From positions 5,543 through 69,542 of the IMG/VR virus record IMGVR_UViG_3300034105_001678: a stretch of 64,000 bases of DNA. One strand, written 5' to 3'. This document shows, one piece after another, positions 25,940 to 57,596 of this stretch (position 1 is its first letter; each line of letters opens with the position of its first letter). Origin of the DNA: a virus (Duplodnaviria; Heunggongvirae; Uroviricota; Caudoviricetes). Below the pieces are notes generated by a model, which had not been told where the DNA came from, ran no database searches, and saw only the letters and a program-made list of their open reading frames with translations. Made by a program: the position numbers and the translations under genes.

Positions 25940-25940
25940 A

Positions 25941-27076: not shown

Positions 27077-27077
27077 A

Positions 27078-27647
27078 TTAAATTGATTTATATAAACGTT
27101 TGTGATTATAAAGTGCTACTGGATTTTCTTCTGCGATTAATCCATATTCATTTCTTACCTTATCATAAATTGATTCAGTATCTTCATTGATGTGTTTTGC
27201 AATGATGTTAACAAACCCATAGTTAGATTCATCAACCACATCTTGTGGTGTTCCAGGTAAACCACAGTAACTCGCCTCACCAACTTCGCTGATGAACATC
27301 CCACTATAGAATCCCTTCAAACGAAATCCGTCTACGAACTTATCGGCGTTACACCAAATGAATACTGAGTTATCTTTCTTCGATAACAATGGAACCATCG
27401 TGTTATCTATAACATAAGCGGTTCCCCATTTTGTAGATGAATTTGAGTCTGTGAATTGACCAACTGAGAATAATCCTCCAGGACTGCCGTGTCCCATCAT
27501 CATTACCCTATCGTGTTCCTCAATGAGTTTTTTAACCTCATCTTTTGTAACTCCACCCGTGATTACTGTTTTGTTTGGAATGGACTCGTAGACAACATCT
27601 AAAAACGATGTGCTTGGGTCCGATGGATGTATTATTAATGTTTTCAT
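27078..27647 (-). CDS. hypothetical protein
   Basis: ORF. A promoter directly abuts the ATG. Confidence 0.45.
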   Translation of the reverse strand: MKTLIIHPSDPSTSFLDVVYESIPNKTVITGGVTKDEVKKLIEEHDRVMMMGHGSPGGLFSVGQFTDSNSSTKWGTAYVIDNTMVPLLSKKDNSVFIWCNADKFVDGFRLKGFYSGMFISEVGEASYCGLPGTPQDVVDESNYGFVNIIAKHINEDTESIYDKVRNEYGLIAEENPVALYNHKRLYKSI

Positions 27648-27651
27648 ATGA

Positions 27652-27683
27652 CAAAGATATGTATTTTTTTGGAATATACCAAA
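27652..27683 (-). promoter_or_regulatory. Minus-strand promoter, leaderless class
   Basis: The reverse complement reads TTTGgtatattccaaaaaaatacaTATCTTTG-TCAT-ATG. Confidence 0.55.
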
Positions 27684-27688
27684 ATATT

Positions 27689-28069
27689 CTAAATAATTTT
27701 AGAATTTACTTTTTCTACTATGTTTTTGTAATCTTCCATATAACCATCTTCGAATTTAGAACGGTCATTAAAGGTCTTAATTGAATGAAGTACAGTGGTA
27801 TGGTCTCTACCATTTAAAAACCCGCCAATCTCAACTAAACTGTATTTAAACTCACTTCTCATCAGGTTACAGAACATATGACGAGCGTCAGATACTTCAC
27901 GCTTATTGTATTTGCGTATAATGTCCTCAACTGAAATAGAGTGGTACTCTCCCACTATCTTTAAAATTTCGGTATGGGAGATTTTAGTTCTTCTAGACTT
28001 TGTAAAATTTTTGGGGATATCTTCTTTTTTGATACCAGGGAAAACGTAAGGGCTAATCCTTCCTTTCAT
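27689..28069 (-). CDS. DnaA domain IV (C-terminal DNA-binding domain)-only protein
   Basis: [40 protein letters not shown] aligns with the DnaA C-terminus ([40 protein letters not shown]). Confidence 0.7.
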   Translation of the reverse strand: [126 protein letters not shown]

Positions 28070-28122
28070 ATTTTGTTATTTTAAACAAACATACGAATAT
28101 ACTAAATAACTACCAAATATTT

Positions 28123-28356
28123 CTAGTATTTTCCTGTAAAATATATGTAAACCACTTCTGGAATCTTGGTACAAATTGTTTCATTACCTTGACCGTCAGA
28201 ACAAGGGATAGACGGTAAGTCTTTAACGTACTTACGTAGTTCTCTAGGTGCTTTCTTCAACCTATTAACCACACTTTCCCTCGAGTATAATTTATCAGAA
28301 TCGTAATGTTCTTTGATTAATGAGGTATATTGAGATTCGGATATTACTATTTTCAT
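28123..28356 (-). CDS. hypothetical protein
   Basis: ORF. Confidence 0.4.
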   Translation of the reverse strand: MKIVISESQYTSLIKEHYDSDKLYSRESVVNRLKKAPRELRKYVKDLPSIPCSDGQGNETICTKIPEVVYIYFTGKY

Positions 28357-28388
28357 ACTAATAAATATCCGAATCTTTATTCTTTTTA

Positions 28389-29498
28389 TTATCTTTCATT
28401 TCTAAAATCGAATGATCCAGATCTAACTTGTTGAGGTACGGGTTCCGCCATATCCATATCCATAGGTTGTTCCGTTGATATTAATTCATCTATTTGTTCT
28501 TGTTGTAATCCTAAATTATCCATAGCATCAACTAATCTACGAACACCCATAGGTTCTTCTGAACGTTCCTCCATCACACCAACTTCTTCTTCAACGTTTC
28601 TCTCAATACCTCTTCTGATACGATTAACTCTTTCTTCCGAAATAGGTTGAGGTACATCTATTGGGTCCATAATTTTAAACCCACCAAACTTAGATAAAAA
28701 TTTATCTTCAACCTCCCTATCTTTGTCAGATAAAAGAAAACGATTTGTCTTAGGTTTATTATCCATAGATTCAACACGGATAACTTTTAATAATTCATTT
28801 GGTAATTCACTTTGTAGAGAATCTATACGAGCATCCTTTTGGTTCCACCAAGAGAATTCAGGATCGTTCTTATCTAATGAACGAAAACTTGCAACTTTAT
28901 ATCCACTCTTCTTATTTAAACAATAAATTAACACTCCTCTAGATGCGTACTTTGTGAAATATTCTGGATTACTTTCAGTAGTTGTACACCACTTAGTATT
29001 TGAACCGTACTTCTTAGATGCATTGAATGTTAATGGTCTAATAAATAACCACTCATCGTCTTCGTAAACTAATTTTATTTGTTTCTCCAAATCTTTACCT
29101 TGAGCAACTATGTCGGCGATACTAACAGCGTTGTTTATCTCGTCAAAGCTTTGATAAGTCGATACATCGTTTTGTTTAATTAAACCTCTTTCATTATATT
29201 CACAGAACTTTTGAAAGGTTTTAATGTCTGAAGTGTTAAACATACCATCAACTATACGATAGAACAATACTAATTGTAAATCTGATATACTATCCAATTC
29301 ACTTTTTTGAATTCCAAATTGTTCTTGTAAGTGTATTTTAATATCATTACAATGTTCTGAAATGTTAGGGGTCTTCTTCATAATCCTCAATAACGTCTCA
29401 GTATATTTCGTTTTCTTATCCGGACAGAATAAAGAAAACAATTCAAACATATTAAGATTGAATTCTGGATTAACTTTTAGTTCTTTTGTTCTAGACAT
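28389..29498 (-). CDS. hypothetical protein (369 aa, acidic C-terminal tail)
   Basis: ORF. No family recognised. Confidence 0.45.
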   Translation of the reverse strand: MSRTKELKVNPEFNLNMFELFSLFCPDKKTKYTETLLRIMKKTPNISEHCNDIKIHLQEQFGIQKSELDSISDLQLVLFYRIVDGMFNTSDIKTFQKFCEYNERGLIKQNDVSTYQSFDEINNAVSIADIVAQGKDLEKQIKLVYEDDEWLFIRPLTFNASKKYGSNTKWCTTTESNPEYFTKYASRGVLIYCLNKKSGYKVASFRSLDKNDPEFSWWNQKDARIDSLQSELPNELLKVIRVESMDNKPKTNRFLLSDKDREVEDKFLSKFGGFKIMDPIDVPQPISEERVNRIRRGIERNVEEEVGVMEERSEEPMGVRRLVDAMDNLGLQQEQIDELISTEQPMDMDMAEPVPQQVRSGSFDFRNER

Positions 29499-29546
29499 AA
29501 TTGGTGTTTTTATTAATATATATAATTATTTTGGGAATCCCAAATA

Positions 29547-30203
29547 TTAATAGAATTTTCTTAAAACTTCTATAACATCCCAAGCATCTTCAAGTGCGTT
29601 GTGAGTTACAATACCATCAACGTTTGCACGTTCCTTACATTGAGTAAGGTTCGGTAATGATTTATCGTTTGTCCAATCAACCATTAAGATTGCAGGATCT
29701 AATACTCTTTGACGAGTACGGATTAATTTTTGCCACCAAGGAAGTTCTTGTAAGAATAACTTATCAAATGTTCCAAAGTTTTTACCGGCAACATTTAATG
29801 TAATCGGTTTAGTTTTACCATCAATGACGGGTGTTAATTTTCCATTCACGTGAGTTGATGGTGAATCCAAATGTGAAAATCCATTACACCAAAGAAACTT
29901 ATAGAATTCTTTAATCACATCTTCTTTCTCATAGAAACTATAATCGGTATGTGTGTCCATTAAAAATCTAGTGTCATCAGTACCTTCAAGGTATTCACCA
30001 ATCATTGCAATGATTTCTTTGTTCATCGTGATTGCTCTTGGTGAACCTGTGATTTCATTTTGAAGAACAATCGCATTAAACTTAGGACACTCTTCGTATG
30101 GTAATTTCTTTTCAGTATCTTCGATAATTGCACCGATAGATAATACTTTGTGTTTCTCAGAATCTAATCCTGAAGTTTCGATATCAACGCTAACGTAGAC
30201 CAT
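29547..30203 (-). CDS. DEDDh 3'-5' exonuclease (DnaQ/RNase T-like)
   Basis: Exo I motif VSVDIETSGL. Exo III motif HNALEDAWD (H-x4-D). Confidence 0.7.
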   Translation of the reverse strand: MVYVSVDIETSGLDSEKHKVLSIGAIIEDTEKKLPYEECPKFNAIVLQNEITGSPRAITMNKEIIAMIGEYLEGTDDTRFLMDTHTDYSFYEKEDVIKEFYKFLWCNGFSHLDSPSTHVNGKLTPVIDGKTKPITLNVAGKNFGTFDKLFLQELPWWQKLIRTRQRVLDPAILMVDWTNDKSLPNLTQCKERANVDGIVTHNALEDAWDVIEVLRKFY

Positions 30204-30223
30204 TTTACTTTTTTTTAAAATTA

Positions 30224-30523
30224 TTAATTAAACATTTCATCTTTACCAACAGCATCGTGCTGTTTCACTAACTCGTTTATCCTACTCTCAATTCTAATTT
30301 GCAATGCACCTTCCAAACCTTTATCTTTCCAATTGGTTTCAAAATAAAATCTCGCCATATTAAATTTTAGTTTAACTTGGTGAAGTTCAAAGCCTGGAAT
30401 CATAATTAAATCTTCCATTTCTTTATCCAAGTAATCGGTTACTTCTGGAATGTTAAAACCTAAACCATACCAACTTTCGGGGATGTATGGTTTGTACTTC
30501 TCATTAAATTCATTTGATGTCAT
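30224..30523 (-). CDS. hypothetical protein
   Basis: ORF. Confidence 0.4.
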   Translation of the reverse strand: MTSNEFNEKYKPYIPESWYGLGFNIPEVTDYLDKEMEDLIMIPGFELHQVKLKFNMARFYFETNWKDKGLEGALQIRIESRINELVKQHDAVGKDEMFN

Positions 30524-30987
30524 AGTCCTAATTTATTAAGTTGTTTAATTGTATCTTCAGCTGAAGTATGTAAAATACCAATACCCCCCGCTTCAATCCA
30601 TCCATTTATATTATCAACTCTATCGTCAATAAGAATGTTGTTAGGACCTGCGAAATCTTTCTTATGTTTAGCACTTCTAAGAATCAATTTAACACCAGGT
30701 AATTCTCTATAAACCCAGTCAAATTTAGCTACCCTCGAATCTTCCTGACGAGATGGTGCTGAAAGTAATTTTGGATTATACTTTTCAATATAAGACCACA
30801 AGTCTTTCCCATCTTTCATCCAACCAAGGTTAATCCAAAAATCATAACCCGCTGCATTGATTGGGTCCCAAAAATCGGTGTCACTTCTATGTGAACCATC
30901 TAACTCGTGACCTGTAAGTTCTAAGTACCCCTTGTCAAAATCAACAAGTACCCCATCCATATCACAATATATTTTATACTCTCCCAT
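30520..30987 (-). CDS. HAD-family 5'(3')-deoxyribonucleotidase
   Basis: DMDGVLVDF motif I and overall NT5C-like layout. Confidence 0.6.
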   Translation of the reverse strand: MGEYKIYCDMDGVLVDFDKGYLELTGHELDGSHRSDTDFWDPINAAGYDFWINLGWMKDGKDLWSYIEKYNPKLLSAPSRQEDSRVAKFDWVYRELPGVKLILRSAKHKKDFAGPNNILIDDRVDNINGWIEAGGIGILHTSAEDTIKQLNKLGL

Positions 30988-31029
30988 AATATATGTTTTG
31001 AGTACAAATATAAGATATTAATTTGAATA

Positions 31030-31064
31030 TACAAAAAAACCCCAAAAAAATTTGGGGTTTTATA
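31030..31064. terminator. bidirectional hairpin terminator
   Basis: aaccccaaa-aaaa-tttggggtt flanked by A and T runs. Confidence 0.6.
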
Positions 31065-31083
31065 GGAAATAGTTGAAATATCT

Positions 31084-31308
31084 TTATTTTGTTTTAGCAA
31101 CAACCGTTGGGTTATCACTTTTTGCATTGTCTATAACGTAATATTCACCATTCTCATCCTGACCTATGGTCAATTCGTGATCGTCAGCTCCTGGTAATTC
31201 TTCAGGTTGGATTTTAGTATCGAAGTCGTCAAACTCTTGAGATTCCTTTAGGATACCCTCAACAATTCTAGTGATATCGGTTTGTTTTAATTTAATAACT
31301 TTGGCCAT
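31084..31308 (-). CDS. hypothetical acidic protein
   Basis: ORF. Confidence 0.4.
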   Translation of the reverse strand: MAKVIKLKQTDITRIVEGILKESQEFDDFDTKIQPEELPGADDHELTIGQDENGEYYVIDNAKSDNPTVVAKTK

Positions 31309-31511
31309 AGTTTCTTTTATATATAAATATCAGGTTATTTGGTTAAGATTTCTTACGATCCAAACCTTTCTTTTGATTCAATTTACGGGTGGCTTTAGCC
31401 ATTTTCTCCCTATTTTTTTGTTTCTTTTCACTTTTTGTCATATTCTTAAATATAAGAAAAATAAAAAAGGGACACCTTTCGATGCCCCTTTGGTTTTCAG
31501 GGATTTATATC

Positions 31512-32456
31512 TTAATTAATTCCTTTAAATATTTGTGGAACTGTACCATAAACTGGTAACTTACCATCCCATTTATTAATGAACTCCAATTGTAATAGCA
31601 TTGGTGTAATGGTCTTTTGTTTTAAACTATTAGCCTCAGCTTCAGCCTTAGCGGATGTTAACATTGCCTCAGCGTTACCTTGTGCGGTTGCCACTTTAAT
31701 CTTAGCTTCAGCCTCAGCTTGTTTAACTTTATTTTCAGCCATCAACGCCCCTTGAACGGCATTGTTCTTTGCTTCAATTGCTCTCTTAAATGTTTCAGGG
31801 TAAACTAAGTTAGATGTCAATTGATTAATGATGAAACCTTCAGGTAATAAACTAGCATCCAATGTTGCTCTTACTTTTGTTTCAAACAATTGACGGTTAC
31901 TGATTAGTTCCTCAGCCGTATAAAAGTTAGCGGTCATTCTAAATGCGTCATAAATGTTTGTCTTTAAAAACCCATCTTCAATCTCACCTAAACTTCTACG
32001 GTATTTGGCAAAAATCGATGGAACCTTATCTCTCTTTACAGAATAGTTAATGATTGGTGAAATGTGAAATTCACTACCATCTTTTGAGTTAACAATAAAT
32101 GCGTTCTCACCACTATATTCTTTATGTTGAATGTAAGTTGGGAACTCATAAATGTTATGTGTAATTGGATTAAAAAATACCATACCTGTTACTTCAGTAA
32201 CATCACTAACCCCTTTGTTATCACCATAAAGGTTTACCTTAACACCTACGTGTCCAGCGTCAATTCTCTCACAAGAGAAAAATAAAAATACTAATGTAAA
32301 AAATAACCCTACTCCAATTAAAATACTTCTCATAATTTGTTTTTGTTTTTGTTTTTGTTCTTGATTAAATTCTTCTTCTAAACGATTTAATTGTTCGTCT
32401 GTTCTTCTATTTCCGTAAGCATCAAAACGATTATCATACCTATTAAATGCTTCCAT
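31512..32456 (-). CDS. SPFH / band-7 (prohibitin/stomatin-like) membrane protein
   Basis: N-terminal TM then an SPFH-like body. Ala/Glu-rich coiled-coil tail (AEAEAKIKVATAQGNAEA...). Confidence 0.65.
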   Translation of the reverse strand: MEAFNRYDNRFDAYGNRRTDEQLNRLEEEFNQEQKQKQKQIMRSILIGVGLFFTLVFLFFSCERIDAGHVGVKVNLYGDNKGVSDVTEVTGMVFFNPITHNIYEFPTYIQHKEYSGENAFIVNSKDGSEFHISPIINYSVKRDKVPSIFAKYRRSLGEIEDGFLKTNIYDAFRMTANFYTAEELISNRQLFETKVRATLDASLLPEGFIINQLTSNLVYPETFKRAIEAKNNAVQGALMAENKVKQAEAEAKIKVATAQGNAEAMLTSAKAEAEANSLKQKTITPMLLQLEFINKWDGKLPVYGTVPQIFKGIN

Positions 32457-32457
32457 A

Positions 32458-32823
32458 TTATTTATTTTTTGGCTTCTTTCTTGTTTTCACAAATGGTTCC
32501 TCACTTTTAGTTTTGGAAGCTTGTTTGGGATTTCTTTTCTTTTTAATTATTTCTTCCTTGGGTACATAATCGTATTCAGTTTCTCCTGGTGGGATTACCT
32601 CATCTTTATTTGAAAAAAACTCAAACAGATCTTTCCATTGAATGAAATGATAAACAAACAATACTGAGAATATACCAACTAGTGCCGCCAAAATATTGGT
32701 GTACGAGTCTGCGGTAGTTAATCCTGGAAATACGATATATTCGAACACGATTACGACTCCGAATATTACTCCAACAACAGCCAAGACACTTTTGTCGAAT
32801 ACTTTTTTTAATGTTTCTTTCAT
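32458..32823 (-). CDS. membrane protein (2 TM) with a basic tail
   Basis: Hydropathy. Confidence 0.4.
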   Translation of the reverse strand: MKETLKKVFDKSVLAVVGVIFGVVIVFEYIVFPGLTTADSYTNILAALVGIFSVLFVYHFIQWKDLFEFFSNKDEVIPPGETEYDYVPKEEIIKKKRNPKQASKTKSEEPFVKTRKKPKNK

Positions 32824-32952
32824 TTGTTTTAAATTTTACCCCATCCGGATTTTTCCATACAAATTAAACGATATTGTTCAACTGTTCTAAGGAAGTTTAT
32901 TAATTTTTTCATAGTATTAAAATATAAATAAAATTTTTTAAATAAAAAAATA

Positions 32953-33609
32953 TTATCCAACAATTCCTTTCATATCATCTGTGTGATGATCTAACGGTCC
33001 TAACTCTGAACCGATTACAACTTTTTTCATCGGATTAATAATCTCACGATGTAAATCATAAGGTCTAAATTCTGGATGACCATCCATACCTACATCCATT
33101 CTTCTACCATTGGTAATCTTTTGTGCGTGTGGTAAGTGACAATGTCCGTGTAGCATTATTCTACCTTTACGTAAACCATTCCAAGATGATATTGGATAGT
33201 GCATACACTCCAACGTTTCACCCATATAGTTTACTTGTAGGAACCATTGAACACTATTGAATAAACTTTGACAGTTCTCTCTGTTCCTATCAATGTGATG
33301 ATCGTGGTTACCTAAGATTAAATGAATCTCTTGACATATGATTCTATCTCTTAACAATTGAATGTTTTCAAATCCACCGAATGACCAATCCCCAAAATGA
33401 ATCAACACATCTTCTTGACCAACAACCTCATTGATGTTGTTAACAATGGTATCATTCATCTTATCTAACGTTGGGAAATCCCTTGTTTGATTTTCCGGAA
33501 TATCTCCATTAGCTAATCTCCAATTAGTTGTTCCACGACATATGTTTCCGTGACTGAAATGGGTGTCTCCCGTTACCCAAACTTTTCTACTATCTTCTAT
33601 CTTTATCAT
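32953..33609 (-). CDS. calcineurin-like metallophosphoesterase
   Basis: GDTHFSHGN, GDWSFGG, GNHDHH and HGHCH motifs. Confidence 0.65.
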   Translation of the reverse strand: MIKIEDSRKVWVTGDTHFSHGNICRGTTNWRLANGDIPENQTRDFPTLDKMNDTIVNNINEVVGQEDVLIHFGDWSFGGFENIQLLRDRIICQEIHLILGNHDHHIDRNRENCQSLFNSVQWFLQVNYMGETLECMHYPISSWNGLRKGRIMLHGHCHLPHAQKITNGRRMDVGMDGHPEFRPYDLHREIINPMKKVVIGSELGPLDHHTDDMKGIVG

Positions 33610-34022
33610 CCTCTAAAAAATTTAAAATCTTTTTTCTTATCCGGTCTTCTATTTGGTGGTTCTATTCTTTCTATTGCAGACCTAATTGCCGTTTCTCTTT
33701 CTGATTGTGCTTGAGTAATTCGTGATATTGGTGGTGGAGGTGGAATGGTTCTACCAAAACTTGTCATTCGTTGTCTGTTAATTTCTGACATTGTTCTAAA
33801 CCATCCTCTATGTCTCTCGTTACTTTCATTTTCTTTCTTTCGTTTTTCTTTTATGATTTTTTCCTCATCATCTCCAATTAATAACGCCAATATTGGACCC
33901 AATATTATTGCACCTATTATTGTATCTAAACCTAATGTCCAACGTTTACTGTGATAGACCATCACATATGTTGCGGATATCATCCAAAAAAATACTAAAA
34001 CAAATATTAACTCGTTACTCAT
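33606..34022 (-). CDS. membrane protein (N-terminal TMs, PPPPP linker); C-terminus ends DFKFFRG
   Basis: Hydropathy. The C-terminal heptapeptide mimics the MIKPFKFF-family motif. Confidence 0.4.
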   Translation of the reverse strand: MSNELIFVLVFFWMISATYVMVYHSKRWTLGLDTIIGAIILGPILALLIGDDEEKIIKEKRKKENESNERHRGWFRTMSEINRQRMTSFGRTIPPPPPISRITQAQSERETAIRSAIERIEPPNRRPDKKKDFKFFRG

Positions 34023-34023
34023 A

Positions 34024-34521
34024 TTAACTAAATTCAGTTGATGTACTTACTCGAAGTCCATCGATTATTAAATCATCGTACTTGGGGTCATCGAAAAACG
34101 AACCAACACCTTTAGCTCTTTCCTTTTTTCGATATTCACGATTAACAACTAACCCATCAGGTTCACCCCATTCAAGTGCCATAGTAATAAAATCTTCAAT
34201 ACTCCACTCGTCACCATATTCATCAACCACCCTACCTGAACGAATGAAAGACAATAGTTCTTCTTTATTAGAATAATATTTGTCCTTATGAAAATTCCAA
34301 CAGAACTTCCAACCACCGCTTCGTTTACCTAAATGAATATTAGTTCCATCAATGAAGATACCCCACGGACTTTCTCTACCCCATTGATTATCAATAGGTT
34401 CATCAAACCCACACTCAATGTTACTTGGTGATAAATCTAAGTTGGCAATACGTTCTAGTAATTTGAATTTTCTTTCATCCATCTCGGATGCTTGGGGTAT
34501 GCGGTAGTAATTTGTTCCCAT
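34024..34521 (-). CDS. hypothetical protein
   Basis: ATG at 34521 (MGTNYY...). The track start 34542 is a TTG. Promoter -7 box at 34540-34547. Confidence 0.4.
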   Translation of the reverse strand: MGTNYYRIPQASEMDERKFKLLERIANLDLSPSNIECGFDEPIDNQWGRESPWGIFIDGTNIHLGKRSGGWKFCWNFHKDKYYSNKEELLSFIRSGRVVDEYGDEWSIEDFITMALEWGEPDGLVVNREYRKKERAKGVGSFFDDPKYDDLIIDGLRVSTSTEFS

Positions 34522-34658
34522 AATGTTAGTAAGTTTGTACAAATGTATATATTTTTTCTGATATCACAAAATATATCACAAAAAAATCCCCAAATTTCTT
34601 TGGGGATTAACTGAAACACGACTCGTGTCAGTCCGAGGATACTATCCAGGGAGAGGTT

Positions 34659-38939: not shown

Positions 38940-39365
38940 CTATGAATTTTCTTCAATATAATCGTGTTGTGGAGACCAAACTCCTTCAGAAGTTACTTTT
39001 GGATTCTCATTTCTATCAATCATAACCCATTCAGCTTTAACTAAACCCCAAGGTTTGAAATGTTCTAATACGTCCTCAAGTGAGAAACATTTACAACTGT
39101 AGATATCAAACTGAGCCATTGGTAATTCGTAATGATCCCAAATGTGAATTGATGCGTGTGATGTTGCCAAAGTAACCGTACCTGTTAAACCTTCATTACC
39201 TGGGTAATCAACGTAAACACTCGTAGGTCCACCTACAACTTCCATTTTAACTTTATGAACTAACTGGATAAACCATTCATTTAAATCACTAACTCTGTTC
39301 GGAGGATTAGTGAGCCAAACCTTCATCAAAAGGTGTTGGTGATAAGGAACAAATTCTTCTTGCAT
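38940..39365 (-). CDS. S-adenosylmethionine decarboxylase-like (prokaryotic SpeH/SpeD class, pyruvoyl enzyme)
   Basis: GLTGTVTLATSHASIHIWDHYELPMAQFDIYSCK aligns with [32 protein letters not shown]. Confidence 0.55.
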   Translation of the reverse strand: MQEEFVPYHQHLLMKVWLTNPPNRVSDLNEWFIQLVHKVKMEVVGGPTSVYVDYPGNEGLTGTVTLATSHASIHIWDHYELPMAQFDIYSCKCFSLEDVLEHFKPWGLVKAEWVMIDRNENPKVTSEGVWSPQHDYIEENS

Positions 39366-40309: not shown

Positions 40310-40885
40310 TTAAATTTTATTTATTTTAAATAACTCTTCGGTTAAATCAATATATGGTTGTGTTTCGGGATTATAATAGCCAACCATTTTGTCTATTTTT
40401 TCCTTATTGTCGTATGTTGTAGTTTTATTATGTTGTTCAACTCCCCAAATTGGTTCTGGTAATTCTCTAACATTAAACATAACCACTCGTTCTGGTGTTG
40501 CGCAAACATAAAAAACATCTTTGTCAGGTGATATAATCATATCGTCCCATTTTTTCTTTTCAACTAAGAAAGTATCATAATCTTTCTTTCTTCCTTTAGT
40601 TTCAATTCCACATTTTTCTAAAATACTACGCAAATCGATAGGAGAATATTTGTTATGTATATTTAAATCTATCAAATCAGGATACAATTTTTTCAATTCA
40701 AAATAAATACTTGTTTCATCCTGACAAATGTAAGTTAGATATCTTTCTCTTCTTTTACTTAAAAGTAGTGGTATACAATTAATAATTGTATCTAAACAAT
40801 TTTTATGTTCTTGTTCTTTTTCTAATTGTTCCGCTATCCGTTTTTCAATTTCTTCTACTGACAACTCTTCAATATCTCTCGACAT
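40310..40885 (-). CDS. hypothetical protein
   Basis: ORF. Confidence 0.45.
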   Translation of the reverse strand: MSRDIEELSVEEIEKRIAEQLEKEQEHKNCLDTIINCIPLLLSKRRERYLTYICQDETSIYFELKKLYPDLIDLNIHNKYSPIDLRSILEKCGIETKGRKKDYDTFLVEKKKWDDMIISPDKDVFYVCATPERVVMFNVRELPEPIWGVEQHNKTTTYDNKEKIDKMVGYYNPETQPYIDLTEELFKINKI

Positions 40886-41469
40886 AAATCTTCTGGTATT
40901 TTACTTCTTTCATAAGCGTTAGATCTACCTTGTGTTCCTGTTTTAGAACCTCTAGGTGCTGCAACGTGACAAGGTGAACCATTCTTACACATTGGTCTTG
41001 GAACCCATACATCACTATTAGTCCATATGTCGGTTGGTTTCATTCTTTCATCACCATACTGACAATATGTAACAGTGTTTCGTTTGAACTTATCCATAAA
41101 TGGCATCTTACGAAGAACTCCTCTTGGGTTTTCAATGAACCAATATGTTGGATTGAAATGTTCAATCACTTCGATAGTTTTCTTAACTAATTCAATACCA
41201 AGTCGTGCGGTATCTGTCTTAGGAATGTACGCACCCTTACCTCCAGTCCAATGGTGACCTAAAGCGGCAACACTGAATCCTGTACAAGGTGGTGATGCCC
41301 AAATTACATCAGGTTGAAATGGAACTTTGGTTACATCAAAGTCTAAGATACTAACGGCATAATGTATTCCGTCAAATGGTGTTAGGTCGGATGAAAATAC
41401 TTCCATACCTAACTCTTCGGCAATCTTTCCAACGGAACGACTACCCGCAAATAATTCTAATACTTTCAT
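40855..41469 (-). CDS. DNA (cytosine-5)-methyltransferase
   Basis: Motif I LELFAGSRS, motif IV ASPPCTGFS, motif VI ENPRG. Compact 204 aa. Confidence 0.8.
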   Translation of the reverse strand: MKVLELFAGSRSVGKIAEELGMEVFSSDLTPFDGIHYAVSILDFDVTKVPFQPDVIWASPPCTGFSVAALGHHWTGGKGAYIPKTDTARLGIELVKKTIEVIEHFNPTYWFIENPRGVLRKMPFMDKFKRNTVTYCQYGDERMKPTDIWTNSDVWVPRPMCKNGSPCHVAAPRGSKTGTQGRSNAYERSKIPEDLCREILKSCQ

Positions 41470-41813: not shown

Positions 41814-42146
41814 TTATAGAGAAAAAGATTCTCCACATCCACAGGTGCGGGATGCATTAGGATTGGACCAACTAAATCCTTTACCGTTTAAACCAGATGA
41901 GTATTGTAGCTCGGTACCATATAGATAAAGAACTGATTTCTTATCTACCACTAATTTAACTCCACCGCCCGCCTCGAACACGTCGTCCGATTCGTGTATG
42001 TTGTCATCAAAGTCCATTGTATATGAAAGACCTGAACATCCTCCACCCTTTACCCCAACACGAAGATGGTGAGTGTCTGGATTTATACCATCACCCACCA
42101 TAAGTTCTATCACGTGTTCTAATGCTAACTCACTTATTGTAATCAC
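41814..42146 (-). CDS. iscA: Fe-S cluster insertion protein, A-type carrier (IscA/SufA/HesB family)
   Basis: GGGCSGLSYTMDFDD and C-terminal CGCGESF are hallmark HesB motifs. Confidence 0.75.
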   Translation of the reverse strand: MITISELALEHVIELMVGDGINPDTHHLRVGVKGGGCSGLSYTMDFDDNIHESDDVFEAGGGVKLVVDKKSVLYLYGTELQYSSGLNGKGFSWSNPNASRTCGCGESFSL

Positions 42147-42328
42147 TTTAAACCAGTCTTATTTAATAAAGAATCGGTTGTTTTAATATCAACCTTTATT
42201 TCTTTTATCACTTGGGTTTCCTTTCGTAATTTTGCAAGTTCTCGTTGTTGAAAGAAACATATTAATAGTAATGCGATTGCACTTCCCTTAGTTATGTTGT
42301 CTTGATTTTTCTTGAAGAATTCTATCAT
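42143..42328 (-). CDS. small membrane protein
   Basis: ORF sitting between iscA and iscU. Confidence 0.35.
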   Translation of the reverse strand: MIEFFKKNQDNITKGSAIALLLICFFQQRELAKLRKETQVIKEIKVDIKTTDSLLNKTGLK

Positions 42329-42332
42329 AGTT

Positions 42333-42728
42333 TTAATTAATTAATATATCCATACCATTTTTCTTTCGGTAATCGTTTATCGCTTCTTTGATAGCATCTT
42401 CCGCTAATACCGAACAATGTATCTTAACTGGAGGTAATGATAGTTCCTCCACCAATTCCATATTATCCATTTTAATTGCATCATCTATTGACATTCCTTT
42501 CAACCATTCGGTTGCTAAAGAGGATGCTGCGATTGCCGATCCACATCCGAAGGTTTTGAACTTAGCGTCGGTTATGATGTTATCGTTAACTTCAATTTGT
42601 AATCTCATTACATCACCACATTCTGGTGCACCCACTAATCCCGTACCTACATTAGATTTACTTTTATCCAAAGTACCTACGTTTCGTGGGTTATTGAAAT
42701 GATCTATTACCTTATCTCCGTATGCCAT
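42333..42728 (-). CDS. iscU: Fe-S cluster scaffold protein IscU/NifU
   Basis: Near full-length identity pattern to bacterial IscU: MAYGDKVIDHFNNPRNVG, GAPECGDVMRLQ, FKTFGCGSAIA, LPPVKIHCSVLAEDAI. Confidence 0.9.
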   Translation of the reverse strand: MAYGDKVIDHFNNPRNVGTLDKSKSNVGTGLVGAPECGDVMRLQIEVNDNIITDAKFKTFGCGSAIAASSLATEWLKGMSIDDAIKMDNMELVEELSLPPVKIHCSVLAEDAIKEAINDYRKKNGMDILIN

Positions 42729-42751
42729 AGTATTTGTTTATATGATAAATA

Positions 42752-44265: not shown

Positions 44266-45234
44266 TTAATATACTATTTTTTCTTGAGATTTCAAAATAT
44301 CATCAACAATTTGTATCCTTTGACCAATCCATCTCATTACATTTACTGTCATTGAGTTACCAATAATACCTTTAACATTTGAATATGATGGTTTTTTACC
44401 GTCAATTTCAAAGTCAAGATAATCATCAGGGAACCCCTGAAGTCTAAGTAATTCTTTCTCGGTAAATTCTCGGATACCTCCCTCATCAACCCAATAGTTT
44501 GATGTTGAATCCTTACCAAACCCATCGGTTAATGTTTGAGAATATGATTTAGTTATCGTACCTGCGATTCTAATTTGTCCGAGAAGACTTTTGGTACGGT
44601 CATCCCTCTCTTTAAGAGTCTCTTTTTTAAATTTCTTAAAACATCCTTCGTCAAATAATATTGCCGCAGGGACTCTCCAGTCGGTTCCACGATATCCAAC
44701 AATGTAGACTCTTTTGCGTCGTTGGGGTACTCCAAAATATTGGGAGTCGAAAACCCTATAAGCGATTGACCGTTTGGTACCTTGAACAATACCTCCCCCT
44801 CTGTTGATGTTGTCCGGTCTAAAATCGACACCTGTGAAAGAGGAGATGATGTCACACAACCCTTCTTTGTGTTCTTTATCAAAAACACCGTCGACGTTTT
44901 CCCATACGTTGTACTTGGGAGATTTTGACTCAAGAATTCCTCCATATTTAATGGCGAGTTGAGCACGTAAGTCATCCATTCCTTTTCTGAGTCCTGAATT
45001 TGACCAAGCTTGGCACGGTGTGCCTCCGACGAACACGTCGAAATCTGTTTTTTTGAATTTTTCATCGTCTAGTAAGTTTAACATATTTGTATAAAAAGGA
45101 ACATCAGGGTAATGATGTTTAAGGACTTTCTGTGGGAAACTTGCAAAGTCACATAGACCCGCACATTCCCAACCAAGTGGCTCCCAAGCGACAGTCGCCG
45201 CCTCCATACCACTACATACTGAAAAATACTTCAT
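44266..45234 (-). CDS. DNA (cytosine-5)-methyltransferase
   Basis: Motif I FSVCSGMEAA, motif IV GGTPCQAWSNSG, motif VI VWENVDGV. C-terminal target recognition domain. Confidence 0.8.
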   Translation of the reverse strand: MKYFSVCSGMEAATVAWEPLGWECAGLCDFASFPQKVLKHHYPDVPFYTNMLNLLDDEKFKKTDFDVFVGGTPCQAWSNSGLRKGMDDLRAQLAIKYGGILESKSPKYNVWENVDGVFDKEHKEGLCDIISSFTGVDFRPDNINRGGGIVQGTKRSIAYRVFDSQYFGVPQRRKRVYIVGYRGTDWRVPAAILFDEGCFKKFKKETLKERDDRTKSLLGQIRIAGTITKSYSQTLTDGFGKDSTSNYWVDEGGIREFTEKELLRLQGFPDDYLDFEIDGKKPSYSNVKGIIGNSMTVNVMRWIGQRIQIVDDILKSQEKIVY

Positions 45235-49737: not shown

Positions 49738-50859
49738 TTAATTACTTAATGGTGCTTTTATTGACGGGTGATATTGGTAATTTTCTAATATTACATCTTT
49801 TTCTCCGAATGAAAATATACCATCCATAATGTGTACAGTTGGTAAATTAAATGGTTCTCTGTTTATTTGTTCTTTAGCTTGTTCAATATGGTTCTTATAT
49901 AAATGAACATCACCTAAATTACCTATTAATTCATCTGGTACCATACTCATTTCATCCGCAATCATCATTAATAATAAACCATATGACGCAATGTTAAATG
50001 GTAAACCTAAAAATGTATCAACAGATCTTTGATTCCACATTAAGGATATTGCTCGTTTAGGTATATTGTGTGATTGTAACTCTTCACTCAATCCCCCACC
50101 AAATGGAACTATATCATCAACCATTGATTTAAACCTTTCCTCACCAACTTTCTTCTTTAATAAGTCCCACATCTCTTCCCCAGTTAACTTTCTAGTGTAG
50201 ACTTGAAAACCATAATGACAAGGCGGTAAAACCATTTGGTCTAACTCACCCACGTTCCAAGCACTTACCATCAATCTTCTACTATCTGGATTTGTTTTAA
50301 GTTCATCAATTAGATTTTGAATTTGGTCTAAATAAATTGGGTCACCGTTATCGGATATGTCTTGTAATCCACCCCATTTTCTCCATTGTTTACCATAAAT
50401 TGGTCCGAGTTCTCCCCATTCCTTAGCAAACTCATCATCAATTTTGATAAGATTAATAAATTCTTCTTGAGTTAATGGTGTTAACATATCCGAATTACTG
50501 AACAGTATTTCAATGTGTGGTTGGATACCCATAATATCTCCACATTTATATCCATCAATAATCTCATTAATCTTTTTAGAATAGTTTTTATAAGCATCAC
50601 CATTCCAAATGCTACATCCATTCATCACTAGATACTTGATGTTAGTACTACCACTTAAAAACCAAATCAACTCGGTTACCATAGTTTTCCAAGCCATTTT
50701 CTTAGTTGTTAATAATGGAAACCCCTGAGCCATTCTATGACGTATTTGTCTACCAAAAACTGAAATGGTTCCAGTTCCAGTTCTATCCGTTTTAACAACT
50801 CCATTATCCAAAATATCTTGTAGTAAATCTTGATACTTCTTATCAATCGTATTCATCAT
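49738..50859 (-). CDS. thyA: thymidylate synthase (ThyA) with two insertions
   Basis: DRTGTGT, GFPLLTTKK, SAWNVGELDQMVLPPCHYGFQVY, LGLPFNIASY. About 100 aa longer than E. coli ThyA. Start trimmed to MMNTIDKK. Confidence 0.85.
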   Translation of the reverse strand: MMNTIDKKYQDLLQDILDNGVVKTDRTGTGTISVFGRQIRHRMAQGFPLLTTKKMAWKTMVTELIWFLSGSTNIKYLVMNGCSIWNGDAYKNYSKKINEIIDGYKCGDIMGIQPHIEILFSNSDMLTPLTQEEFINLIKIDDEFAKEWGELGPIYGKQWRKWGGLQDISDNGDPIYLDQIQNLIDELKTNPDSRRLMVSAWNVGELDQMVLPPCHYGFQVYTRKLTGEEMWDLLKKKVGEERFKSMVDDIVPFGGGLSEELQSHNIPKRAISLMWNQRSVDTFLGLPFNIASYGLLLMMIADEMSMVPDELIGNLGDVHLYKNHIEQAKEQINREPFNLPTVHIMDGIFSFGEKDVILENYQYHPSIKAPLSN

Positions 50860-51065
50860 ATTAATTTTTTTCTTCTTCAATTTCATATCCTTCTTGGATT
50901 TGTACTCCCATCATATAGGTTAACCACCTGATTGTTAACCCCCAACAAGGTGACGTTATACCCGTTTCAAGGAACTCCGTTTTGTTATAAAAAAAAACTA
51001 CCGTTGGTATTATGAACCAATGGTGCCTTTTATTATAAATAAAAAAGTCTTTGTAGTAAATTTTT

Positions 51066-52518: not shown

Positions 52519-53874
52519 ATGAAGAAAAAAATATTACTTTTATCTGATGATTTAAGAATGACATCAGGTATTGCTACTATGTCCAAAGAAATCGTATTAG
52601 GTACCGTCCACAAATACGATTGGGTTCAGTTGGGTGCATCGATTAGTCACCCTGAAATTGGGAAGATTGTTGATGTAAATGACGACATAAGAAAACGCAC
52701 CGGAGTTGAAGATGCGAATTTAAAGATTATACCATACAATGGTTATGGGGATATCAATATGATTCGTAGATTGTTAGACGAAGAAAAACCAGATGCCATT
52801 CTTCATTTTACGGACCCACACTATTGGCAATGGTTATACGATAACGAACACGAGATAAGACAGCGTGTACCAATTTTATATTGGCACATTTGGGATGACT
52901 TACCAGATCCACAATACAATAGAGACTTCTATGAAAGTTGTGATTGGGTTGGTGGTATTTCAAAACAAACATACGGTATTATTCATCGTGTTAGTAAAAG
53001 AACCGATAAGGTTACATTTAAACCTTTGGAAGATTGGCAGATAAGTTACGTTCCTCACGGTATTAATCCAGATTTATTTAAACCGTTAGATACTATCAGT
53101 GAAGAAGTAACTAAATTTATTCACGGAGAAAAGAAATATGACTTTGTTCTATTTTACAACAGTAGAAACATTAGAAGGAAACAACCAAGTGACGTAATTT
53201 ATTCATTTAAATTATTCTGTGATAGATTACCAAAAGAAAAGGCTGAAAAATGTTTATTGCTAATGCACACATCTCCGGTTGATGAGAATGGTACAGACTT
53301 ACCTGCAGTTATTAATGACCTTTGTCCTTATGATGTTAGATTCACGGGTATTAAATTAGAACAAGATAAGCTAAATGAATTCTATAACATTGTTGATTGT
53401 ACAATTAACATTGCAAACAATGAAGGATTTGGTTTAACGACGGCAGAATCTTTAATGTCGGGAACACCAATCATTGTAAATGTTACTGGTGGGTTACAGG
53501 ATCAATGTGGATTTGATTTTAGTGCCGATGATTATATTAGTGTCGGTACTTTACATAGTAAGGAAGAAAGAAGTCAAACAGCTCACGGTGAATGGGTTAT
53601 TCCTGTTTGGCCATCGGCAATTAACTTAAATGGTTCAGTACCAACACCATACATTTTTGATGATAGGGTTAATGATATTGAAGTTGCTGATGCTATTATG
53701 AAAATGTATAAGTTTAGTAAAAAGAAGAGAAAAGAAAAAGGATTAAAAGGTAGAGAGTTTATGATTAACAATCTATCAAATAAAATAATGTGTGATAAAC
53801 TGATTGAAGGTATTGATACCACAATGGAAAAATTCACACCAAGAAAAAGATTCGACACATATAAAGTAATATGA
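52519..53874 (+). CDS. glycosyltransferase, GT-B fold (GT1/GT4-like)
   Basis: C-terminal EGFGLTTAESLMSGTPIIVNVTGGLQDQ is a GT4-type donor-binding motif. Confidence 0.65.
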   Translation: MKKKILLLSDDLRMTSGIATMSKEIVLGTVHKYDWVQLGASISHPEIGKIVDVNDDIRKRTGVEDANLKIIPYNGYGDINMIRRLLDEEKPDAILHFTDPHYWQWLYDNEHEIRQRVPILYWHIWDDLPDPQYNRDFYESCDWVGGISKQTYGIIHRVSKRTDKVTFKPLEDWQISYVPHGINPDLFKPLDTISEEVTKFIHGEKKYDFVLFYNSRNIRRKQPSDVIYSFKLFCDRLPKEKAEKCLLLMHTSPVDENGTDLPAVINDLCPYDVRFTGIKLEQDKLNEFYNIVDCTINIANNEGFGLTTAESLMSGTPIIVNVTGGLQDQCGFDFSADDYISVGTLHSKEERSQTAHGEWVIPVWPSAINLNGSVPTPYIFDDRVNDIEVADAIMKMYKFSKKKRKEKGLKGREFMINNLSNKIMCDKLIEGIDTTMEKFTPRKRFDTYKVI

Positions 53875-55127
53875 TTAAACCATTTTTATTATTTAGAGGA
53901 CCAGTAAAAACAAGAAGCGGATATGGTGCACATTCAAGAGACTTACTTGAATCACTTTATAAGATGGACTTGTTTAATATTAAAATTGATAGTTGTTCTT
54001 GGGGAAGTACTCCATTAACCGCATTAGAAGAAGGGAATGAATTCCATAATTGGATTAATGAAAACATCATTACCAACTTACCGGATCAACCAGAGATTTA
54101 TGTACAAGTAACCGTACCAAATGAATTTCAAAGAGTTGGTAAATTTAATATAGGTGTGACCGCAGGTATTGAAACAACTGTGGCACCTAAAAATTGGGTG
54201 GATGGTTGTAATAGGATGGATCACATCATAACCACTTCAACATTTTCTAGAGACGTTTTATTACAAACAGTTTATAATGAAACAGAAAATAATACTGGAA
54301 AATTAATTAAACAATTTAGAATTGAAAAACCCGTTTCAGTATTGTTTGAAGGTGTTGATACATCAATATATAATAACAAATATAAAGGTATCGATGTCGA
54401 TATTACGGAAGATTTTGCGTATCTTTTTGTTGGTCATTGGTTGAAAGGTGATACTGGTCAAGATCGTAAAGATGTTGGAATGTTGATTAGATGTTTCATT
54501 GAAGCATTTAAGGATGAAGAAGTAAAACCTGCGTTAGTTCTTAAAACGTCGTCAGCAACTTTCTCAGTTAGACAAAGAGAAGATTTTAGAAAGAAAATTG
54601 AGGATATTGTTAAGTTAAGTAAAACCGATACTCCTCCATCAATTTATCTTTTGTTTGGTGAATTAACCAATGAGGAAATGAATGAGTTATATAATCATCC
54701 TAAAATAAAAGCAATGGTTTCAATAACAAAAGGTGAAGGATTTGGTAGACCGTTATTAGAATTTACAATGACGGGTAAACCTGTGATAGCATCTAATTGG
54801 TCTGGACATAAAGACTTCTTACCTATGGAGAAAGCTATAATGGTTGGTGGTTCATTAACTGAAGTACACGAAAGTGTGATAGATGATTTTATCATTAAGG
54901 GTTCCAAATGGTTCACAGCCAATTATAACGAGTTTACAGAAGTGATGAAAATTGTTATTAAAGATTATGATAAGTTTTTGGAGAAGTCTGAATTGCTTAG
55001 AGAGTTTAACTCTGAAAACTTTACGTTGGATAATATGAAAAATAAGTTTGAATCTATTTTAAAACAAAATACAATTCAACCAAAAGAACATAAATTGGTT
55101 TTACCAAAACTCACAAAAGTTAACTAA
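53871..55127 (+). CDS. glycosyltransferase, GT-B fold (GT1/GT4-like)
   Basis: KGEGFGRPLLEFTMTGKPVIASNWSGHKDFL. The N-terminus MIKPFLLFRGP resembles the MIKPFKFF family motif. Confidence 0.6.
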   Translation: MIKPFLLFRGPVKTRSGYGAHSRDLLESLYKMDLFNIKIDSCSWGSTPLTALEEGNEFHNWINENIITNLPDQPEIYVQVTVPNEFQRVGKFNIGVTAGIETTVAPKNWVDGCNRMDHIITTSTFSRDVLLQTVYNETENNTGKLIKQFRIEKPVSVLFEGVDTSIYNNKYKGIDVDITEDFAYLFVGHWLKGDTGQDRKDVGMLIRCFIEAFKDEEVKPALVLKTSSATFSVRQREDFRKKIEDIVKLSKTDTPPSIYLLFGELTNEEMNELYNHPKIKAMVSITKGEGFGRPLLEFTMTGKPVIASNWSGHKDFLPMEKAIMVGGSLTEVHESVIDDFIIKGSKWFTANYNEFTEVMKIVIKDYDKFLEKSELLREFNSENFTLDNMKNKFESILKQNTIQPKEHKLVLPKLTKVN

Positions 55128-55378
55128 TGTCATTTAAATTTCTCACAGGTAACCAAGATATGTTTACACATTTGGAACCCACCCAACTATTAACATTAAG
55201 ACAACCAACAATGATTAACAATGTTGAATTTTGTTTTCAGTTTGGTGATAATGAACCCGTAGTATTTGCAACAGGACCTAATGAATGTCAAATTCGATTA
55301 AGTCCACAAACAGATGCTAATATTATGTTCACAGATAATCATAGACAGTTTAAATTATTTGCAAGAGAAAGACAATGA
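55127..55378 (+). CDS. hypothetical protein
   Basis: ORF. Confidence 0.35.
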   Translation: MSFKFLTGNQDMFTHLEPTQLLTLRQPTMINNVEFCFQFGDNEPVVFATGPNECQIRLSPQTDANIMFTDNHRQFKLFARERQ

Positions 55379-55584
55379 GAAAGTTTACCTTCTTTGTTGG
55401 TATTAGTAAACCAACACTAACCGCAACTTGGTCACCTGAATTCAATGATAATTTATTTACTAACCACGGTATTGATGCTGAGGCGGAACTAACAAGAATA
55501 ATGTCAGCAGAAATTGCAAGAACAATAGATGAAGATATAATAAGAACATTAACAAGAGAAATAAACGGAGGATTAAGAGCCTAA
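55375..55584 (+). CDS. hypothetical protein
   Basis: ORF. Confidence 0.35.
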   Translation: MRKFTFFVGISKPTLTATWSPEFNDNLFTNHGIDAEAELTRIMSAEIARTIDEDIIRTLTREINGGLRA

Positions 55585-55585
55585 T

Positions 55586-56431
55586 ATGAAAATTTTAGTA
55601 ACAGGAGGAGCAGGATTTATAGGAACTAATCTAATTAAGAGATTATTATTTGAAGGGCATAATGTAGAATCTATTGACAACTACGATAGTGGGTTAGTGT
55701 CCAATCACGTAGATGGGTGTAACTATCATACGGGAGATATAGAATCTATTGGTTTGATGGATAAAGACTTTGATATGATATATCATTTAGCGGGACTAAG
55801 TAGAATCCAACCATCGTTTAAAAATCCAACAGAAACTTTCAGAGTTAATACTATAGGTACCGAGAGTGTTTGTTCATTTGCAAAGAAAATAAATGCTAAG
55901 GTTGTATATGCGGGTTCGTCGTCAAGATGGCACGACCCATTTCAATCACCATACGCTTGTTACAAACATATGGGTGAAGAGATTTGTAAAATGTACAGAA
56001 AGGTTTATGATATAGACATTGAAATTGTTAGATTTTATAATGTTTACGGACCTAACGAAGTTGTTGACGGTGATTGGGCCGCAGTTATTGGTATATGGAG
56101 AAGACAAGTTATTAATAAGGAACCAATTACTATTGTTGGTGACGGTAATCAAAGACGAGATTTCACACACGTTATTGATATAGTTGATGGTTTATATAGG
56201 GTTGGTACGAGTAACGAAAAACACGAAGACGCTTGGGAGTTAGGTACTGGAACCAATTATTCAATACTTGAAGTCTATGAAATGTTTAAGGAAAAATTTG
56301 GGTGTGATAAGTTACACATTGAGAATCAGAAGGGTAACTATCGTATAACTTTGCGTGAAAATAACGATGCAATCGACCGTTTAGGTTGGTCACCAGAAAA
56401 TAGATTAAAAAATTATGTAGATAGTTTATGA
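55586..56431 (+). CDS. NAD-dependent sugar epimerase/dehydratase (SDR family)
   Basis: Rossmann ILVTGGAGFIGTNL. Catalytic YACYKHMGEE (YxxxK). Confidence 0.75.
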   Translation: MKILVTGGAGFIGTNLIKRLLFEGHNVESIDNYDSGLVSNHVDGCNYHTGDIESIGLMDKDFDMIYHLAGLSRIQPSFKNPTETFRVNTIGTESVCSFAKKINAKVVYAGSSSRWHDPFQSPYACYKHMGEEICKMYRKVYDIDIEIVRFYNVYGPNEVVDGDWAAVIGIWRRQVINKEPITIVGDGNQRRDFTHVIDIVDGLYRVGTSNEKHEDAWELGTGTNYSILEVYEMFKEKFGCDKLHIENQKGNYRITLRENNDAIDRLGWSPENRLKNYVDSL

Positions 56432-57051
56432 AAATAAGTTTTGCTATAACAGTATCCAAAGAGATAAACGAAATTAAACATTTAGTTCCATTCTTATTAG
56501 AACATAAACGACCTCAAGATGAGATAGTTGTTTTGTTTGATGAAAAAAATGGAGACAAGGAAGTGTTAGATTTTTTATTGCCTTTTAATATCAAACCTAA
56601 CGTACAAACCTGGAGAGGTTTTGATTTTGATTATAACTTTGCCGATTGGAAGAATAAATTAAATTCTTATTGTGTTGGGGATTATATATTTCAATTAGAT
56701 GCTGATGAGATGGTAAGTGAGTATATGATAAAGAACGTTACTGAAATCATTTCTATGAATAAGGACGTTGAGTTATTTTTTCTACCAAGAATAAACATAG
56801 TAAGTGGAATAACTCAGGATCATATTAATAGATGGGGATGGATAGTTGATGACTTAGGTAGGATTAACTTTCCAGACTTTCAAGGTAGAATATATAAGAA
56901 AGGTTTGGAATGGCAGGGAAAAGTTCACGAAAGAATTGTAGGAACGAAGTCCTATTCATTACTACCATCAGATGAAGAGTCGTATTGTATTAAACATTAC
57001 AAAGACATATCTAAACAAGAACAACAAAATAACTTATACAGTAAAATATGA
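56428..57051 (+). CDS. putative glycosyltransferase (GT-A, DxD QLDADE)
   Basis: DxD motif and GT2-like N-terminus. Confidence 0.45.
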   Translation: MKISFAITVSKEINEIKHLVPFLLEHKRPQDEIVVLFDEKNGDKEVLDFLLPFNIKPNVQTWRGFDFDYNFADWKNKLNSYCVGDYIFQLDADEMVSEYMIKNVTEIISMNKDVELFFLPRINIVSGITQDHINRWGWIVDDLGRINFPDFQGRIYKKGLEWQGKVHERIVGTKSYSLLPSDEESYCIKHYKDISKQEQQNNLYSKI

Positions 57052-57596
57052 AACTAGAAGAAATATACAATCAGAGATGTTCAACTCCATCGGATATTAA
57101 TGAACACTTACCAACATTAAAGAAATACGCCGAGGAGTGTGACCACATTACCGAAATGGGAGTTAGATGGGTGGTATCAACTTACGCCTTTATGATGGGG
57201 GGACCTAAAAAATTAATATCAATTGACATTAACCCCGTTGAAAAACACGGAATTAAAGTTGAAGACTTAGTTGAATTAGCCAAAGAAAAAAATGTTGATT
57301 TTGAATTTCAATTAGGTGACACTACTGTAATTGAAATTGATGAAACTGATTTTCTTTTTATTGATACTTGGCACGTTTACCAACAATTAAAAACAGAATT
57401 AACACTACACGGTAATAAAGCTAGAAAATATATTGGATTCCACGACACCACAATATTTGAAACTAGAGGGGAAAACGGTCATCCTGGTTTATGGCCCGCA
57501 ATCGAGGAGTTCTTATCTGAAAACCCTCATTGGTCAGTCCACGAAAGGTTTACAAATAACAACGGATTAACTATATTAAAGAGAAATGAAGATTGA
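57048..57596 (+). CDS. putative class I SAM-dependent O-methyltransferase (TylF/CmcI-like)
   Basis: EMGVRWVVSTYAFMMGG...ISIDI...FLFIDTWHVY pattern. Confidence 0.4.
   Translation: MKLEEIYNQRCSTPSDINEHLPTLKKYAEECDHITEMGVRWVVSTYAFMMGGPKKLISIDINPVEKHGIKVEDLVELAKEKNVDFEFQLGDTTVIEIDETDFLFIDTWHVYQQLKTELTLHGNKARKYIGFHDTTIFETRGENGHPGLWPAIEEFLSENPHWSVHERFTNNNGLTILKRNED

Follow-up and report, generated by a model that had tools for sequence, protein, structure and literature searches.

The 64-kb stretch of viral DNA analyzed here, hereafter the window, encodes a U-type Fe-S cluster scaffold and an A-type Fe-S carrier that, judging from sequence comparisons, probably constitute a piece of the Bacteroidota ISC pathway carried by a virus; the host would supply IscS, and the pair would sustain Fe-S supply during infection. 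The two genes and a third, small gene lying between them are tightly packed on the minus strand at 41814-42728, in the order iscU, orf61 and A-type carrier. These positions, and the presence of a 61-aa ORF between scaffold and carrier, are exactly as given in a preliminary description of this DNA. Profile scores for the two Fe-S proteins, together with their conservation over many related loci, are far beyond what chance would produce.

Scaffold, carrier and the rest of the ISC system

The iscU gene (42333-42728, minus strand) has an ATG start and codes for a 131-residue U-type Fe-S cluster scaffold of Bacteroidota type. Its product matches PF01592 NifU_N (E = 6.7e-50; 168.9 bits against a cut-off of 22) and, over residues 3-124 of 131, the NCBI curated equivalog model TIGR01999 iscU (212.8 bits against a cut-off of 192.4), and it scores under the cut-offs of both the NifU and SufU models. 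The alignment with the solved IscU proteins of H. influenzae and E. coli (1q48, 2l4x) covers its whole length. The reference ligands of E. coli IscU are C37, D39, C63, H105 and C106, with LPPVK as the chaperone-binding motif; the window protein contains Cys37, Asp39, Cys62, LPPVK at residues 98-102, His104 and Cys105, and all of these are invariant across 59 distinct viral and 72 cellular IscU sequences. The TIGR01999 score and the structure alignments thus bear out the earlier reading of a near-canonical IscU with its three cysteines and LPPVK motif intact. The same ligands and motif are shared with the E. coli ISC scaffold, to which the window protein is 68% identical (70% for Acinetobacter IscU). 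In the PHROG collection it matches phrog_8429, a "NifU-like Fe-S cluster assembly protein" of the auxiliary-metabolic-gene category.

Selection on this gene has been strongly purifying, with a median dN/dS of 0.07 among diverged phage copies, for which dS is often >1. At an 80%/80% conservation threshold, comparison of the viral consensus with the cellular Bacteroidota consensus yielded no diagnostic viral-versus-cellular substitution in IscU. Since no position separates the two, phage IscU should fit host partners and would be expected to engage the IscS and chaperones of the host in the way that the native scaffold does. One sequence was set aside during these comparisons: a 224-aa "double IscU" (P0001) on a 991-bp ENA contig has a truncated IscU joined in frame to a complete one and probably arose through chimeric assembly of two strain variants.

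The gene for the A-type Fe-S carrier (ATC; IscA/ErpA/HesB family) lies at 41814-42146 on the minus strand, has a GTG start and encodes 110 residues. Its product matches PF01521 (E = 1.9e-15), the subfamily model TIGR00049 (108.2 bits against a cut-off of 58.8) and phrog_17776, an ATC family; among solved structures it is closest to HI1723, Aquifex IscA and E. coli IscA. Cysteines Cys37, Cys102 and Cys104 (GGGCSG ... CGCGESF) are present and align with the ligands of solved ATCs. The window carrier shares both the three-Cys signature and the fold family of E. coli IscA/ErpA. All three cysteines occur in 54 of 56 viral sequences; the other two are gapped at those columns, and one of them also has Gly at Cys37. 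Loss of Cys ligands on careful alignment, which had been named as what would refute the identification, was seen in neither IscU nor the carrier.

The name IscA, which the preliminary description had given to this protein, stands in part. The product is an A-type carrier with three cysteines that passes TIGR00049, but it is not IscA proper by profile: it scores under the equivalog cut-offs for IscA (TIGR02011 / NF007049; 89.1 versus 150.6), ErpA (NF010147; 99.9 versus 117) and SufA (TIGR01997; 86.0 versus 136.2). Bacteroidota carriers encoded downstream of iscU have the same NCBIfam profile, passing TIGR00049 and likewise failing the IscA, ErpA and SufA cut-offs. Because the window carrier and its Bacteroidota counterparts all fall under these cut-offs, "IscA" is here a name from position and synteny only. 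The carrier gene is also under purifying selection (median dN/dS of 0.16 among diverged phage copies). A terminator-like hairpin at 41833-41850 lies within the CGCGES codons of the carrier gene and is probably a chance occurrence, as four such sites were found against 2.0 expected. Two unannotated "uncultured phage" records of ~600 kb in GenBank, LR756504.1 (393370-393693) and LR756511.1 (324450-324782), encode ATCs that are 53% and 43% identical, respectively, to the window carrier.

Other parts of the ISC system are missing. The tblastn searches of the window (E <= 1) returned nothing beyond noise for IscS, HscB, HscA or Fdx, and no iscS, hscA, hscB or ISC-type fdx is present in ~100 related viral loci, each covered for about 8 kb on either side. 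The earlier statement that the locus has no IscS/HscAB therefore holds for the window and for these flanks. Unlike in E. coli, where IscR, IscS, HscB, HscA, Fdx and IscX adjoin, none of these is found at the window locus; with scaffold and carrier only, the window does not contain a complete ISC system.

The phage, its host and the ancestry of the pair

The window has a GC content of ~33% and contains 113 ORFs of at least 60 aa, arranged in long same-strand gene blocks and packed with small ORFan genes; no tRNA or ribosomal genes were found in the 64 kb. Its gene content is typical of phage. Recognizable genes include those for a DNA ligase, a thymidylate synthase, several DNA methyltransferases, an M23 peptidase, an AdoMet decarboxylase, and GP88, DUF932 and PcfJ-like proteins, as well as a 9-kb glycan-biosynthesis cluster, and several ORFs match phage-derived families (Pfam GP88; PHROGs 1617, 1221, 4074 and 200). 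Two C5-cytosine methyltransferase-like genes lie on either side of the Fe-S locus (40855-41469 and 44266-45234, both minus strand), and an AdoMet decarboxylase-like gene (38940-39365, minus strand) and the gene for a long, 382-aa thymidylate synthase (49738-50886, minus strand) belong to the same transcription block. The glycan-biosynthesis cluster occupies 52519-61743 on the plus strand and is adjoined by an Asp/Arg-hydroxylase-like gene and a DUF401 gene (62263-63830, minus strand). Within it are genes for two GT1-like and several GT2 glycosyltransferases, an NAD-dependent epimerase, a methyltransferase and a UDP-galactopyranose mutase.

Neighbors beyond the right edge were read from contigs that carry an identical DUF401 gene (L186/L187, 1-925 and 5917-7434). 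Just past the edge is a tail-fibre gene whose 1278-aa product contains a Peptidase_S74 domain and has many PHROG tail-fibre matches; a 505-aa Trp-halogenase-like flavoenzyme is also encoded on these contigs, no more than 10 kb from the right end of the window. To the left, a walk of up to 10 kb encountered ORFans only. A 213-kb contig encodes one product identical to the window DUF932 protein and ends ~1 kb downstream of that gene, and therefore reaches ~200 kb leftward. A further contig, of 321 kb, encodes an A-type carrier from the 90%-identity cluster of the window carrier, and syntenic IMG/VR relatives of up to 287-334 kb are classed as viral. The tail fibre at the edge and these large viral contigs show that the window derives from a tailed jumbo phage of freshwater-type metagenomes, whose genome measures roughly 270-330 kb. 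That the pair is phage-encoded, as first proposed, is accordingly upheld by viral relatives of up to 334 kb, by the tail fibre at the right edge and by the phage-like gene content. Relatives of the window IscU are encoded on at least 589 IMG/VR stretches. Among GenBank phages, neither a megablast search with 8 kb around the locus nor a tblastn search with a lineage-specific 464-aa protein gave a match, and thus the GenBank phage collection holds no isolated or deposited close relative.

Evidence for the host comes from both translation and transcription signals. GGAG or GAGG precedes 4% of window ORFs, compared with 4.6% at random positions, and so there is no Shine-Dalgarno signal. The Bacteroidota-type promoter motif TTTG-N18-21-TAnnTTTG is present in 20 copies in the window versus 2.8 +/- 1.9 expected; 13 of these lie on the plus strand at 431-10087, upstream of small genes, and the others include copies at 17588-34570 on the minus strand. 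Among the 13, eight start with TTTGGTGGA and ten end with TATATCTTTG. This repeated motif is probably an early-gene promoter family read by a host sigma factor. A sigma-70 promoter scan of the window showed no enrichment (22 sites versus 23.2 expected). Translation initiation without Shine-Dalgarno sequences and the sigma-A promoter architecture are Bacteroidota traits. The host is probably a member of the Bacteroidota; the similarity of IscU and the ATC, the missing Shine-Dalgarno usage and the enriched promoter motif all support the Bacteroidetes host named in the preliminary description.

In a scan of cellular IscU proteins that used one genome per species, the matches were almost all from Bacteroidota, at 78-86% identity, and belonged to Sphingobacteriales, Chitinophagales and Cytophagales. 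An iscS-iscU-iscA context without adjacent hscBA or fdx was found at 77 of 80 cellular loci. The window shares with this Bacteroidota operon the order iscU then ATC, with 78-86% identity for IscU and 53-61% for the ATC, and differs from it in having no iscS, in the extra 61-aa gene between the pair and in its location in a phage genome. Mean identity of viral IscU is 80-82% to each of the three Bacteroidota orders, which are 82-86% identical to one another, and 68-70% to Gammaproteobacteria. For the ATC, mean identity is 59% to Bacteroidota and 46% to Gammaproteobacteria; compared with 63-74% between Bacteroidota orders, the phage ATC has diverged further. The comparison with host IscU that had been suggested thus places both proteins closest to those of Bacteroidota.

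Given the shared gene order and these identity levels, the pair has the appearance of a distal iscSUA operon segment captured long ago from Bacteroidota, in which the carrier would be evolving faster. By sequence similarity we assign IscU to the Bacteroidota type, a claim that stops above the order level. A neighbor-joining tree without bootstrap placed viral IscU as sister to Chitinophagales; we rejected this placement, as internal branches are 0.001-0.02 and the best matches of the window protein are Sphingobacteriales.

A variable slot between iscU and the carrier gene

The small gene between the pair, orf61 (42143-42328, minus strand), encodes a 61-aa product with no family in Pfam, NCBIfam or PHROG. 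Its start lies 4 nt past the iscU stop, and its stop overlaps the GTG start of the carrier gene by 4 nt (GTGA), which suggests co-transcription and translational coupling of iscU, orf61 and the carrier gene. Close relatives are 93-100% identical in this product, and for more distant ones the figure is 54-74%. The conservation in close relatives, together with a dN/dS of 0.05-0.25 among them, establishes orf61 as a real gene. Its product contains a single hydrophobic segment (residues 12-26, Kyte-Doolittle 2.05) and is probably a single-pass membrane-anchored protein.

Related loci differ in what they carry at this position. In every related viral locus holding both genes, iscU lies upstream of the ATC gene on one strand, and in many of them the two are only 14-44 nt apart and the slot is empty. 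A ~102-aa ferredoxin is encoded in the slot of at least 33 related viral loci, some of them syntenic with the window (L009, L011-13, L017, L024-26, L029, L031-38, L040-48, L051, L064, L075 and others; for example L033, 8431-8736, directly downstream of iscU). This ferredoxin has two Cys motifs (CVDCMDTACASACP ... CINCGACVPECP), is of the 7Fe/dicluster type, matches Fer4 families and phrog_8732, and is FdxA-like while scoring under the FdxA cut-off. With a ferredoxin between the pair, the locus can be described as an Fe-S-themed module. The window's lineage has orf61 in the slot instead, and tblastn detected no copy of the slot ferredoxin anywhere in the window. Other loci have 2-6 kb of glycan and methyltransferase genes in the slot, once with a RuBisCO-like protein. 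The 5-6 kb insert of L031 and L047 encodes a 394-aa RuBisCO large-subunit-like protein (PF00016, E = 1.1e-32; motif GGVNFIKEDE), and the gene sits on viral contigs among sugar and methyltransferase genes.

The scaffold gene itself is also variable in its occurrence. In the close relative L084 (2074-2099, corresponding to window positions 42345-42738), iscU is precisely missing between orf81 and orf61, and identity to the window is 98.6% on the carrier side of the junction and 81% on the other side. The junction is a recombination boundary and reflects an iscU presence/absence polymorphism. The gene is missing in L086 and L095 as well; iscU therefore behaves as a cassette that is dispensable for some members.

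These arrangements allow a broader reading, quite unlikely in our estimation, in which the abundant freshwater clade ancestrally possessed a three-gene cassette of iscU, 7Fe/dicluster ferredoxin and ATC. The phage ferredoxin would serve as electron donor for cluster assembly on IscU in place of the [2Fe-2S] Fdx, and the slot would be a swap site. If this were true, the locus would represent a minimal virus-specific ISC variant needing only host IscS, and the slot, whether filled with the ferredoxin, orf61 or glycan genes, would tune the module to hosts or conditions.

Proposed function and relation to known systems

Phage IscU and ATC genes are already catalogued (PHROGs 8429 and 17776) and described (PMC5332604). 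Nishimura 2017 (PMC5332604) reported IscU in six marine viral genomes and an ATC in 14, offered the same Fe-S supply interpretation and cited earlier virome reports of sufA and iscU; a 2019 review (PMC6359870) includes Fe-S cluster genes among ocean viral auxiliary genes. Like those marine genes, the window pair is virus-encoded without a desulfurase. However, the marine IscU genes cluster with homologues from Gammaproteobacteria and are dispersed over T4-like and other genomes (PMC5332604), whereas the window pair is Bacteroidota-type, belongs to a freshwater-type jumbo-phage clade and forms a conserved linked pair. Among genuine phage genomes in GenBank, only Phage C48C1 (OQ984149, Kyanoviridae) encodes a full-length IscU similar to that of the window; its NifU-like protein is 72% identical and also passes TIGR01999. 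The C48C1 protein is proteobacterial-type (79% identical to E. coli IscU), has no adjoining ATC and is an independent acquisition. Records named "Acinetobacter phage MD-2021a" also contain IscU and IscA (CAKLQF020000009.1 / CAKLQH020000011.1, L002), within a complete iscR-iscS-iscU-iscA-hscB-hscA-fdx operon and among housekeeping neighbors; these are bacterial contigs. New in the present locus are its Bacteroidota-type ancestry, the freshwater-type jumbo-phage clade, the way in which the scaffold and carrier genes stay linked, and the swap slot between them.

The earlier classification of the pair as auxiliary metabolic genes agrees with their presence on viral contigs of up to 334 kb, their Bacteroidota-type ancestry and the dN/dS values of 0.07 and 0.16. 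During infection the three genes would probably be co-transcribed and translationally coupled. Phage IscU would dock on host IscS and take up persulfide sulfur and iron, and [2Fe-2S]/[4Fe-4S] clusters would be built on it; the phage carrier would then hand these clusters to apo-proteins, which may belong to the host, the phage or both. As a result, Fe-S supply would be raised, or kept up when host gene expression or cluster stability fails, and the pair may in this way boost Fe-S enzyme maturation as originally suggested. Counting against a role in Fe-S supply are the lack of a client in the window, the dispensability of iscU in L084, L086 and L095, and the observation that in E. coli the ISC pathway hinders lambda infection rather than helping it (PMC3296357).

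The search for Fe-S client enzymes proposed in the preliminary description came back empty over the ~82 kb inspected of the ~300-kb genome. A Cys-motif scan and tblastn found no CX3CX2C, ferredoxin or glutaredoxin motif in the 64-kb window, Pfam comparison of ~46 window ORFs gave no match to a radical-SAM or other Fe-S family, and none was seen in the 8-10 kb past either window edge. This result bears on the idea, possible though unlikely, that the pair is not a general boost but a dedicated supply line for one or a few phage-encoded Fe-S clients elsewhere in the genome, candidates being a ferredoxin, a radical-SAM enzyme, a nuclease or a helicase. The window covers only a minor part of the genome, marine phages that encode IscU or an ATC have 2-16 further Fe-S-related genes (PMC5332604), and the 7Fe/dicluster-type ferredoxin sits exactly between iscU and the ATC gene in its at least 33 loci, all of which would suit a dedicated line; the window's lineage, however, has orf61 in place of that ferredoxin and no other ferredoxin copy in the window, and the inspected sequence offers no client to be served. 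We regard it as very unlikely that the pair acts mainly on sulfur flow, with excess phage IscU occupying host IscS and diverting sulfur from TusA/ThiI-type acceptors or other partners; tRNA thiolation, translation fidelity or frameshifting would then be altered, and Fe-S output would be secondary. Competition between E. coli IscU and TusA for IscS does change lambda infection via tRNA-Lys thiolation and programmed frameshifting (PMC3296357), and a phage IscU that equals host IscU at conserved positions would be an effective competitor. Yet a decoy needs no cluster ligands, LPPVK or co-conserved carrier, all of which are invariant, more IscU harms lambda, and the ferredoxin in relatives points to cluster chemistry.

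It is scarcely credible that the window is not viral at all and represents a misclassified bacterial or plasmid fragment with ordinary cellular iscU and iscA. Some records labelled "phage" that match IscU are indeed bacterial contigs with a full iscRSUA-hscBA-fdx operon, and DUF932 and PcfJ also occur on conjugative elements. The window, however, has no iscS, unlike the 77 of 80 cellular loci; it is adjoined by a tail fibre with an S74-chaperone domain; its dense small ORFans are accompanied by matches to GP88 and to PHROGs 1617, 1221, 4074 and 200; no tRNA or ribosomal genes were found in it; and the 213-334 kb contigs are classed as viral. A fragment of the Bacteroidota ISC pathway that is carried by the phage and fed by host IscS thus remains the reading that we favor.

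No new kind of system is revealed by this locus. It extends viral Fe-S assembly genes from marine, proteobacterial-type examples to widespread freshwater-type jumbo phages that probably infect Bacteroidota, and natural variants with and without iscU, and with and without the ferredoxin, provide good material for functional tests. Scaffold and carrier have been kept together under strong selection, which suggests that Fe-S supply repeatedly limits large phages.
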